DNA from: a phage | Length of the DNA: 1,199 nucleotides | Sequence record: OR846207.1 | Reading direction: 5' to 3' (one strand) | In this document: positions 1-1,199 of the stretch, in pieces | Layout of the letters: every line of letters starts with the position of its first letter | Numbering within the stretch: position 1 is the stretch's first letter | The notes under the pieces: generated by a model | What the model was told of the DNA's origin: nothing | Databases searched by the model: none | Seen by the model: only the letters and a program-made list of their open reading frames with translations | Translations under genes and position numbers: made by a program

Positions 1-1
1 A

Positions 2-151
2 AACCAAACCCTGCTTGACCAGCGCCTTTCAGATCTTGAACTAAAAGATTTGGATGCGCAAATATCAGAAGCAGAAGCCAAGCTATCCAGCTTAAACCAC
101 CGCAGGAAGCAAATCCGCAACAGAATTACTCAGGGACGCGGAAGCTGTTGA
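2..151 (+). CDS. 3' end of a CDS truncated by the window start; 49 C-terminal residues (…NQTLLDQRLSDLELKDLDAQISEAEAKLSSLNHRRKQIRNRITQGRGSC), stop TGA at 149-151; function unknown
   Basis: Only plus frame open across 1-151 (frames 1 and 3 hit stops at 16-18 and about 40). The minus strand has stops in all three frames here. Residues are charged with a heptad-like Leu pattern and a basic tail. No start codon in the window, so it is absent from the ORF track. Confidence 0.45.
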   Translation, partial: NQTLLDQRLSDLELKDLDAQISEAEAKLSSLNHRRKQIRNRITQGRGSC

Positions 152-160
152 AATCCTAGT

Positions 161-478
161 CTATTTTTTCTCAGAGCTCATATTGTAATAGGTGGTATAA
201 ATAGAGATTGATTTCTGACATGCTTCAAGAAATTGCTGCGGAGTCATCCCAAGCCTTGCTTGCTCTGTAGTAAGGAATCTCTGTAAGAATTCATTCCCAC
301 CCGGCATGTTTGTAGATTCTTGGAATATTGCCATTTGTTTGATTGCACCACACATACCAGCCATTTTCGAAGCTATCATGAGGCCTTGTATTTCATCAAA
401 ACTGCTATCGTCTGATTTTGTTTCTGCGTTAGCTATGCTCGAGAGACACAGGAGCAATAGGATAGCGATGCGTTTCAT
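161..478 (-). CDS. Small secreted/periplasmic protein of unknown function, 105 aa, with a Sec signal peptide; co-transcribed with the Mnt-like repressor
   Basis: N-terminus MKRIAILLLLCLSSIANA-ETK has a classic n-region (MKR), a hydrophobic core and an AXA (ANA) signal-peptidase I site. The mature part of about 87 aa has two Cys (GMCGA, EACQK) that could form a periplasmic disulfide. No lipobox is present (LLLC does not fit L-[AS]-[GA]-C). Its ATG (478-476) overlaps the upstream TGA (477-475) as ATGA. An SD-like AAGGGTG lies about 5-7 nt upstream inside the preceding gene. Confidence 0.75.
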   Translation of the reverse strand: MKRIAILLLLCLSSIANAETKSDDSSFDEIQGLMIASKMAGMCGAIKQMAIFQESTNMPGGNEFLQRFLTTEQARLGMTPQQFLEACQKSISIYTTYYNMSSEKK

Positions 479-723
479 TTTTCACCCTTACCATACATGG
501 TTTTCAGCGTCTCAAGCAGCGCCTCTTTGAATTTGTCAGCTTCTTGCTGAGCAAATGACTCAACTGACTTTGGCGACCTATCTTCATCAATCGCGGCTTG
601 CAAAATCATGACGATCTCGGAGTTAACAGAGCGACCATTTTTTGATGCTCTAACAGCAAGAGCCTCGCGTAAAGATTCAGGGATTCTTACCGTAGTTGGA
701 GAAATTGACACACCCTTTGCCAT
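475..723 (-). CDS. Mnt-like ribbon-helix-helix transcriptional repressor (Arc/MetJ superfamily), 82 aa
   Basis: N-terminal beta-strand and helix motif TVRIPESLREALAVRASKNGRSVNSEIVMILQAAI matches the RHH signature and closely parallels P22 Mnt as I recall it (FRMPMEVREKLKFRAEANGRSMNSELLQIVQDAL). A C-terminal extension ending ...LLETLKTMYGKGEK resembles the Mnt tetramerisation helix (...TLKDLYKKTT). Length is Mnt-like. SD-like AAAGGTG sits 4-6 nt upstream of the ATG at 723-721. Confidence 0.85.
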   Translation of the reverse strand: MAKGVSISPTTVRIPESLREALAVRASKNGRSVNSEIVMILQAAIDEDRSPKSVESFAQQEADKFKEALLETLKTMYGKGEK

Positions 724-743
724 AACACACCTTTGGTATTCAA

Positions 744-755
744 TTTGATATCAAA
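744..755. promoter_or_regulatory. Perfect 12-bp palindrome TTTGATATCAAA, candidate RHH operator; extends to an 18-bp near-palindrome CAaTTTGATATCAAAgTG (741-758)
   Basis: Read directly from the sequence. It lies 21 bp upstream of the Mnt-like start codon and 18 bp upstream of the -35 of the plus-strand promoter. RHH repressors bind short dyad-symmetric operators. A related half copy TTTGCTATC occurs at 791-799. Confidence 0.45.
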
Positions 756-763
756 GTGTATGC

Positions 764-774
764 AAAAAAATTTT
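764..774. promoter_or_regulatory. A7T4 tract (AAAAAAATTTT) abutting the -35 element, possible UP-element or intrinsic bend
   Basis: Read directly from the sequence. A/T tracts just upstream of a -35 hexamer are the usual position of UP elements. No functional evidence. Confidence 0.3.
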
Positions 775-801
775 GACTAGATATACTCACTTTGCTATCT
801 T
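773..801 (+). promoter_or_regulatory. Sigma70-like promoter for the Arc-like operon: -35 TTGACT (773-778), 17-bp spacer, extended -10 TGcTATCTT (793-801)
   Basis: TTGACT is 5/6 to TTGACA. Spacer is 17 bp. TATCTT is 4/6 to TATAAT and is preceded by a TG extended -10 motif. Predicted start near 808 gives a leader of about 30 nt to the ATG at 838. Confidence 0.5.
779..800. promoter_or_regulatory. Inverted repeat AGATA-N12-TATCT across the promoter spacer and -10, candidate second operator
   Basis: AGATA at 779-783 and its reverse complement TATCT at 796-800. The position between -35 and -10 is where I recall the Arc operator sitting in P22 Pant. Arms are short, so chance occurrence is plausible in AT-rich DNA. 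Confidence 0.25.
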
Positions 802-827
802 TTGTATTCGAAAAGAGTTGTTTATGT

Positions 828-833
828 GGAGGG
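828..833 (+). promoter_or_regulatory. Shine-Dalgarno GGAGGG for the Arc-like gene
   Basis: GGAGGG lies 4-5 nt upstream of the ATG at 838 and supports 838 over the TTG at 802 as the true start. Confidence 0.6.
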
Positions 834-837
834 TAAC

Positions 838-990
838 ATGGAGAAAGAAATAAGTAAGATTTTGGTAAGGATGCCGCAGTCGTTAAAGGATGCTATCGGT
901 AGCAGGGCAAAGGAAGAGTGTAGGTCGTTTAACTCAGAGGTTATCAAGCGCCTGATAGACAGCCTGAAGAGAGAGGGGGTTACGGTATGA
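838..990 (+). CDS. Arc-like ribbon-helix-helix repressor, 50 aa (MEKEISKILVRMPQSLKDAIGSRAKEECRSFNSEVIKRLIDSLKREGVTV)
   Basis: Aligns along its whole length with P22 Arc as I recall it (…FNLRWPREVLDLVRKVAEENGRSVNSEIYQRVMESFKKEGRIGA): R-[WM]-P beta-strand, RS-x-NSE helix-A cap, ESFKKEG versus DSLKREG at the C-terminus. Strong SD and ATG at 838. The ORF track's 62-aa version starts at an upstream TTG (802) with no RBS. Confidence 0.85.
   Translation: MEKEISKILVRMPQSLKDAIGSRAKEECRSFNSEVIKRLIDSLKREGVTV
971..979 (+). promoter_or_regulatory. Purine-rich Shine-Dalgarno (GAGAGGGGG) for the downstream membrane-protein gene, inside the 3' end of the Arc-like gene
   Basis: GAGG/GGGGG lies 7-10 nt upstream of the ATG at 987; that ATG overlaps the Arc-like TGA stop (ATGA at 987-990). 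Confidence 0.5.
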
Positions 991-1199
991 AGGTGTCATT
1001 GCTTGATCGTTCTTTACAATTTTTGTCTGGCGCAATCATTGTAGTTTGCTTGCTCGTGATTTTTACATCCTTAATCAATATGTATCAATCAGGGGAGCGA
1101 TTGACAAAGACGATAGAGGAAAAGAAATCAGTCTCAAATTACGAAGTATCACATGCACATAACGATTTAGTAGAAAGCCTTGACCGTATTAACAAGAGG
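987..1199 (+). CDS. 5' part of a CDS for a membrane-anchored protein of unknown function (71 aa in window, continues past the window end); one N-terminal TM helix
   Basis: ATG at 987 is in an open frame to 1199 with no stop: MKVSLLDRSLQFLSGAIIVVCLLVIFTSLINMYQSGERLTKTIEEKKSVSNYEVSHAHNDLVESLDRINKR. Residues 11-30 form a roughly 20-residue hydrophobic stretch, with K/R before it (positive-inside) and a charged hydrophilic region after. Absent from the ORF track only because it has no stop in the window. Confidence 0.7.
   Translation, partial: MKVSLLDRSLQFLSGAIIVVCLLVIFTSLINMYQSGERLTKTIEEKKSVSNYEVSHAHNDLVESLDRINKR

Follow-up and report, generated by a model that had tools for sequence, protein, structure and literature searches.

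A gene for a predicted small membrane protein, probably an exchangeable cassette at the arc–sar junction of a P22-type immI operon

Has a membrane-anchored protein taken the place of the antirepressor Ant behind an arc repressor gene and, if not, what might such a protein do in an immunity operon? The question is raised by a 1,199-nucleotide (nt) stretch of phage DNA (record OR846207.1; the whole stretch is called the window below), in which an arc-like gene overlaps the start of a small open reading frame (ORF). This frame, ORF89, encodes 89 amino acids (aa) in full, carries a predicted transmembrane (TM) helix near its N-terminus and runs off the end of the window. An earlier note, drawn from the window alone, had placed this gene where P22 carries Ant. 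We followed the locus into the record surrounding the window (L001; window coordinate = L001 coordinate − 6000) and compared it with P22, with related prophages and with viral loci that share its sar terminator. The comparison indicates that ORF89 is, very probably, an accessory cassette of a complete immunity-I (immI) operon. The full explanation, in which ORF89 is an exchangeable 'moron' cassette of a P22-type immI operon with arc, sar and ant all present and has the function proposed below, we consider correct with a probability of roughly 60%.

Gene order from mnt to ant

The window belongs to a P22-like immI region, located here between the ejection-protein genes and the tailspike gene, and the order read across L001 is mnt ← Pant → arc – ORF89 – sar (antisense) – ant (Table 1). 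The end of the window cuts ORF89 at codon 71; the frame is complete at L001 6987-7256 (window-equivalent 987-1256), 57 nt past the window. Beyond it lie sar, detected with the Rfam model and, for its terminator hairpin, by an independent simple scan, and a full-length ant, whose product is 57% identical to P22 Ant over the whole length (E-value (E) 2e-120). Every immI element of the annotated P22 record has a counterpart here, Pant and its operators as candidates, and the small ORF is an addition that separates the arc stop from the sar terminator. Neither a location 'where P22 carries Ant' nor a membrane gene in place of Ant survives this gene order, and the error arose because the window ends at 1199.

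The locus shares with P22 immI (i) divergent ribbon-helix-helix repressors, (ii) a Pant-like promoter, (iii) its location between ejection-protein and tailspike genes and (iv) a sar whose end directly precedes the ant start and whose promoter, Psar, lies within the 5′ end of ant. It differs from P22 in two respects. In P22 the arc stop (arc 14861-15022) meets sar (15021-15090) directly and ant runs from 15091, whereas here a 264-nt cassette intervenes; and Arc and Mnt are merely 39% and 36% identical to their P22 counterparts (Mnt over 74 residues, E 6e-14).

The two observations on which the earlier note had built, an Arc-like gene at 838-990 and an ATGA overlap of its stop with the next start, are confirmed. 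The Pfam Arc model (PF03869) matches residues 8-47 at E 5e-12, so that the 50-aa protein is the ribbon-helix-helix fold alone. The arc stop TGA (988-990) overlaps the ORF89 start ATG (987-989), giving ATGA at 987-990 (bases 981-990, TACGGTATGA), and a purine-rich, G-rich Shine-Dalgarno sequence, GAGAGGGGG, lies within arc at 971-979, 7 nt 5′ of the ORF89 ATG. Both the Shine-Dalgarno sequence and the ATGA junction are held in the conserved 3′ end of arc, which encodes ...DSLKREGVTV* (asterisk, stop).

The interval between arc and sar

We scanned IMG/VR for the conserved sar terminator, which yielded 120 viral loci (L008-L127). In the 116 loci with a recognisable arc, we then determined how far the arc stop lies from the sar hairpin. 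The interval is empty, as in P22, in 67 of the 116 (7 nt or less), is reduced to a 33-nt deletion remnant in four and holds a cassette ORF in 45 (168-264 nt). The cassettes comprise at least eight different small ORFs of 57-89 aa from at least five unrelated families: one of 57 aa with a GTG start; four of 60 (L116 and L043), 67 (L089), 74 (L014) and 75 aa (L096), all with CxxC...CxxC motifs; those of 73 and 80 aa; and ORF89 itself, the sole cassette with a predicted TM segment.

However different in content, the cassettes share their borders. Every cassette ORF begins 4 nt before the end of arc, at ATGA or GTGA, and every one ends at one common TGA in GTTGAAGCCCC, the left flank of the sar terminator; the reading frame is preserved from border to border in all intact copies. 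The arcs that bear a cassette all end DSLKREG[IV]x[VIA]*, encoded by AGAGAGGGG...ATGA, i.e. AAGAGAGAGGGG..GTATGA. Arcs without a cassette end otherwise, most commonly in ...EGRIGA* with TAA. From the common arc ends and the common TGA we therefore deduce a slot whose two fixed borders provide the ribosome-binding site together with the start and stop codons.

The right border also appears to shape the proteins. The last codons of ORF89, AAA AAA CGT TGA (L001 7245-7260, window-equivalent 1245-1260), are the opposite-strand U-tail and base of the sar terminator. Because the TGA and the codons before it double as terminator, the K/R-rich C-termini of the cassettes (…KKR, …KSKQ, …IKQ, …VKS) are, by this reading, partly dictated by the sar terminator. 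The G+C content of ORF89 (0.359, against 0.446-0.458 for mnt, arc and ant) is as low as would be expected for imported DNA.

Arc alleles and cassettes reassort freely. The arc allele of the window occurs with four cassettes (those of 57, 60, 67 and 89 aa; c57, c60, c67 and c89), and c89 stands behind at least five arc alleles of three clearly different types, a pattern that rules out a cognate toxin–antitoxin pair. The 33-nt loci show that cassettes can apparently be lost with both borders retained. In L020, L023, L025 and L094 a 12-codon remnant of the 57-aa cassette, VIRLDAAKKSKQ, looks like the product of an internal deletion between two LDA repeats.

One cassette can be assigned to a known domain: the 60-aa protein is a ClpX-type C4 zinc finger, scoring 42 bits with PF06689, for which the threshold is 27. 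The 67-, 74- and 75-aa cassettes, also cysteine-rich, show a weak relationship to it. These proteins, as free-standing mimics of the ClpX N-terminal domain under Pant control, might interfere with substrate or adaptor recognition by ClpX early in infection.

The variability of this region is known already. The gene 16–gene 9 region of P22-like phages is hypervariable, an 'ant moron' with ten types in sixteen genomes, and ORF89 is one more such gene; an arc–sar slot with fixed start and stop borders, or coupling to arc, is not described in the portions of that article covered here (Villafane et al. 2008, PMC2629481). The ORF89 family is likewise catalogued, as hypothetical; the defined arc–sar slot and its set of cassettes are what we add.

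ORF89 and the genes around it

Several lines of evidence mark ORF89 as a real gene. When its stretch of 36% G+C was shuffled, 0.1% of the shuffles kept 89 codons open, and the frame is annotated by the Prokaryotic Genome Annotation Pipeline (WP_001555392.1) in E. coli prophages adjoining intS, a tRNA-Arg gene and yfdC. Five close DNA alleles differ by four synonymous codons and one nonsynonymous codon, and the ratio of nonsynonymous to synonymous substitution rates (dN/dS) is 0.28-0.6, with 0.28 between alleles that are 90% identical. A chance open frame was considered and rejected on the shuffle test, on dN/dS and on positional homologues.

ORF89 is found in 14 of 5,426 complete E. coli genomes. 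In very large protein collections its sole relatives are close copies, truncated alleles and an 83-aa form of 39-48% identity, one homologue of which comes from Serratia marcescens. All three copies of the 83-aa form examined occupy the arc–sar slot, overlap arc by 4 nt and lie about 63 nt upstream of ant. When 1.84 billion representative proteins were searched exhaustively with HMMER, an ORF89 copy of 98% identity as query returned only fragments and one homologue of 47% identity. A profile search added two members and no tie to an annotated family.

Comparison of the two forms shows a modular family. Residues 1-50, which span the TM helix and an invariant SG-x-RL...IE motif, are 48-68% identical between the 89-aa and 83-aa forms (dN/dS 0.25-0.40), so that the N-terminal half is conserved across genera. 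The C-terminal coiled-coil half is of two types (L128, L136 and L138 against L001 and L129), about 25-31% identical between the forms with dN/dS near 1, and is well conserved within the 83-aa form, with dN/dS of about 0.1. One member (L138) joins an intermediate N-terminal half to a C-terminal half of the 83-aa type. The C-terminal half may be a module that sets partner specificity.

The frame reads MKVSLLDRSLQ-FLSGAIIVVCLLVIFTSLIN-MYQSGERLTKTIEEKK... and lays out as 11 N-terminal residues, a predicted TM helix at residues 12-31 (Kyte-Doolittle mean 2.5-2.8 over 19 residues), a juxtamembrane motif Y-x-SGERLT-x-TIE and a charged, helical, coiled-coil-like tail with 11 K/R and 10 D/E. An AlphaFold2 model gives one continuous helix over residues 3-88 (predicted local distance difference test score 83). 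The N-terminal TM helix and charged region described earlier therefore stand, as a prediction from hydropathy and the modelled helix. The predicted product crosses the membrane once, as a helix that continues through a conserved juxtamembrane segment into a coiled-coil-like tail, of which two types occur. A cleaved secreted protein was considered as well and rejected, since the hydrophobic stretch extends over 20 residues and, on inspection of the sequence, is not followed by a signal-peptidase motif.

The closest catalogued family is phrog_27312, to which no function is assigned (E 3.3e-60, residues 1-89 against profile positions 1-89). Other PHROG matches are weak, including all those to functionally labelled families; the sub-threshold matches are of coiled-coil type (DUF1664, DUF948, phrog_1625), and the ORF89 profile finds designed coiled coils and noise only among PDB sequences. 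T4 Imm, Sp and RI, HK97 gp15 and SPO1 gp56 are proteins of ~70-100 aa that are anchored in the membrane by their N-terminus and are expressed early or under tight control, and act in exclusion, lysis inhibition or division inhibition; ORF89 resembles them in architecture only.

Upstream of arc, the Pant-like promoter has the position of P22 Pant, and inverted repeats around it include two candidate operators. These are (i) a perfect 12-bp palindrome, TTTGATATCAAA (744-755), upstream of the Pant −35 element, and (ii) a 12-nt inverted pair, 747-758 and 788-799, whose second arm falls within the Pant spacer and −10 region. In P22, Omnt lies downstream of the Pant −10 element, so the candidates are laid out differently. 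Related prophages with a P22-type arc (L129) retain a P22-like palindrome, GAACCACGGTGGTTC, downstream of the promoter. The RefSeq P22 record (NC_002371, 14519-14770) names the mnt product 'partition protein ATPase', the same label as phrog_2685. This label seems to be a mis-annotation and gives a wrong idea of a ribbon-helix-helix repressor.

The window is a 100% match to positions 20651-21849 of OR850876.1, an unannotated 23.5-kb contig of Salmonella phage S.Kent 1-2-1; window 477-1199 is 98% identical to Escherichia phage EC.P3 and window 477-990 is 98% identical to Lederbergvirus phiv205-1. On the far side of mnt, the interval up to the gene 16 homologue carries different cargo in each prophage (L001 5100-6151; L005 3220-4626; L007 3172-4638; L129 2142-3449), for example a YafO-family toxin with its partner, a YobH-family protein, a Panacea-domain protein or a ClpP-like protease, and this variation is consistent with that published for the 'ant moron'. 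In L001 the cargo includes a very hydrophobic 74-aa ORF (5716-5940, minus strand), the 61-aa ORF at the left end of the window, which lies outside the finding, and a 105-aa ORF, whose position is occupied by a ClpP-like gene in EC.P3, phiv205-1 and L007. The 105-aa ORF has no match in Pfam, NCBIfam or PADLOC, and its start overlaps the mnt stop by ATGA (475-478, minus strand), coupling this cargo to mnt. Because mnt is the repressor gene expressed in P22 lysogens, the 105-aa ORF would, by analogy, be a better candidate than ORF89 for an envelope protein expressed from the prophage.

Table 1 Features of the window and of the adjoining part of L001 (positions beyond 1199 are window equivalents)
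Feature	Window position	L001 position	Strand	Evidence and remarks
61-aa coiled-coil ORF, 3′ end	1-151		+	phrog_7586, function not assigned; cargo of gene 16–mnt interval
105-aa ORF	161-478		-	phrog_19844, E 1e-69; signal-peptide-like N-terminus (MKRIAILLLLCLSSIANA/ETK...)
mnt-like ribbon-helix-helix repressor gene, 82 aa	475-723		-	Pfam Arc E 9.7e-11; phrog_2685; divergent from arc
Candidate operators	744-799		.	inverted repeats, direct sequence reading
Pant-like promoter	773-801		+	TTGACT-17-TATCTT; 9/12 matches, TG before −10
arc, 50 aa	838-990		+	Pfam Arc PF03869
ORF89, first 71 codons	987-1199		+	phrog_27312; RefSeq WP_001555392.1
sar antisense RNA	1251-1318	7251-7318	-	Rfam RF00262, 77.3 bits against gathering score 43, E 1e-15
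sar terminator hairpin		7286-7255	-	independent simple scan
Psar-like promoter	1354-1326	7354-7326	-	TTGATA-17-TATACT; scan; inside ant
ant, 307 aa	1320-2243	7320-8243	+	P22_AR_N E 9e-45; P22_AR_C E 3e-29
ant terminator	2261-2280	8261-8280	.	scan

Expression, possible roles and meaning

In P22, Mnt keeps Pant shut in lysogens, and Arc shuts it within minutes of infection. If this regulation applies here, ORF89 would be transcribed from Pant with its translation coupled to that of arc, would be kept silent in lysogens by Mnt and would be made only in a short burst after infection or derepression, after which Arc would silence it. sar should not block translation of ORF89, because it pairs with the ribosome-binding region of ant, downstream of ORF89. 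Tight repression that is lifted only for a short burst suggests a host-directed product, one that could do harm if its synthesis were continuous; by the same analogy, a protein made by the lysogen is unlikely. Tentatively, we propose that ORF89 encodes an envelope- or host-directed inner-membrane protein, potentially harmful, that acts in the early burst. The likeliest examples, named with low confidence, are that it transiently blocks cell division or another envelope process, or that it excludes secondary infections in the current cycle; of these we favour a division block as the leading example.

A division inhibitor in a comparable position is known from P1, whose immI region is c4-icd-ant and whose Icd (73 aa), encoded immediately upstream of ant, targets FtsZ (PMC8198154; PMC11897509). 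In both phages a small ORF stands directly upstream of an antirepressor gene in an immunity-I operon under an antisense RNA. The arrangements differ in that P1 icd overlaps ant1 and is needed for ant1 expression, whereas ORF89 has its overlap with arc, and the 63-nt sar region stands between it and ant. The parallel is, as an analogy, one of operon logic only.

Several observations weigh against the explanation that we prefer. The expression pattern is transferred from P22, and the operators differ from those of P22 and are candidates only. Icd and ORF89 match in phmmer at E 2.6, no cassette matches Icd better than E 0.2, and translated Icd lacks a hydrophobic stretch of membrane-spanning length. 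ORF89 has nothing above threshold in Pfam, NCBIfam or PADLOC and matches no family of known function there, in PHROG or among PDB sequences; the charges that flank its TM helix are nearly balanced, so that they do not indicate a topology; and the purifying selection on the protein is moderate, not strong. Alleles with a 1-nt frameshift, 60 aa long, occur in at least five contigs; they retain the TM helix and the motif, followed by 13 out-of-frame residues, and sit in the slot of several E. coli assemblies (L134, L135, 3001-3183). In one defective prophage (L133, 4001-4285) a large deletion fuses the ORF89 tail to an upstream ORF, itself overlapping the gene for the small terminase (GP3_package) at the 3′ end of that gene. 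Because such frameshifted and deletion-fusion alleles exist, ORF89 is dispensable in some prophages.

The alternative that survives best, though we think it unlikely, is the one put forward in the earlier note, superinfection exclusion or abortive infection, in which the membrane protein would keep the DNA of other phages out of the cell or kill the cell once it is infected. A small, predicted single-pass membrane protein is encoded in the region where P22 keeps sieA, and this much of the proposal stands. Among prophages that bear ORF89, one has a YafO toxin and another a YafO_toxin domain in the gene 16–mnt interval, and a prophage with the 57-aa cassette has a Panacea-domain protein there; two C-terminal types, each conserved within itself, could suit a specificity module that faces a variable partner; and an exclusion protein of the early burst, like T4 Imm and Sp, would fit the timing of Pant. 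The part that fares worse is a resident exclusion function. No promoter of its own was found for ORF89, whose start is embedded in arc: the nearest promoter-like site falls inside the ORF, and upstream the only promoter-like site is Pant. By analogy with P22, ORF89 would lie in an operon that Mnt shuts off in lysogens, whereas sieA is provided with a separate promoter, and because Pant regulation is opposite to that of sieA, an exclusion protein made by the lysogen is unlikely. ORF89 has no exclusion or defence match in PADLOC, Pfam or NCBIfam, and the other cassettes of the slot are soluble, one being a true ClpX-type zinc finger, which points to functions directed at the host rather than at blocking phages. 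Exclusion confined to the current infection cycle is possible.

We regard as less probable still a lysis-related or regulatory accessory, either antiholin- or spanin-like or a spacer that tunes arc, sar, ant or read-through into the tailspike gene. An N-terminal TM helix followed by a coiled coil recalls i-spanins and T4 RI; this part of the genome belongs to the late operon and precedes the tailspike gene; and the last ORF89 codons are part of the sar terminator. The ant moron has been proposed to affect late transcription into the tailspike gene (PMC2629481). Against this, a pure spacer would not be expected to show purifying selection on its protein sequence, ORF89 lies outside the lysis cassette and its PHROG matches with a functional label are weak. 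Very improbable is a decaying or functionless passenger ORF: ORF89 is rare in E. coli, disrupted alleles exist and dN/dS approaches 1 in the C-terminal half when the 89-aa and 83-aa forms are compared, but that half is conserved within each form, the N-terminal half is conserved across genera and the frame is exact from border to border in intact copies. The weakest alternative, the type II toxin–antitoxin pair also raised before, with Arc as ribbon-helix-helix antitoxin and ORF89 as membrane toxin, draws on the overlap by ATGA of a ribbon-helix-helix gene with a small downstream gene, as in many type II operons, and on weak sub-threshold matches of Arc to FitA and VapB antitoxin models, but is refuted as far as sequence allows by the free reassortment of arc and cassettes, by the 67 of 116 loci where arc has no downstream partner gene, by an Arc that is a DNA-binding fold without an extra toxin-binding domain and part of a complete mnt-arc-sar-ant module whose operon runs on into sar and ant, and by the lack of a toxin-family or defence match for ORF89 in Pfam, NCBIfam or PADLOC.

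The preferred explanation, an exchangeable accessory cassette in a complete immI operon, leaves the textbook module intact. A membrane protein in place of Ant, or a toxin–antitoxin pair built on Arc, would have rewired it; the full mnt-arc-sar-ant set is present instead. A more speculative extension, which we hold to be doubtful, is that the arc–sar junction serves as a plug-in slot for effectors of the early burst, with roles in host takeover or counter-defence. Anti-CRISPR operons combine a strong early promoter, a small autorepressor (Aca) that ends the burst and interchangeable, unrelated small ORFs at a fixed position. The immI slot resembles them in this logic of promoter burst, autorepressor and exchangeable small ORFs, and differs in that the repressor is Arc, encoded upstream of the variable gene. 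No anti-defence function was matched to any cassette, PADLOC covering defence models and not anti-defence.

If the slot works in this way, an ORF placed in it would gain a strong promoter, coupling to arc and automatic shut-off by Arc, and ORF89 would target a host or prophage component of the inner membrane through its two-type coiled-coil half. The catalogued protein phrog_27312/WP_001555392.1 gains a precise regulatory context, next to the other occupants of the slot: the ClpX-zinc-finger mimics and three or four other small proteins beside the 89/83-aa membrane protein. The arc–sar slot, which is defined by recombination, yields a short list of candidates for early-infection functions of P22-like phages, and cassette swaps in an otherwise identical phage would be a natural way to compare them.

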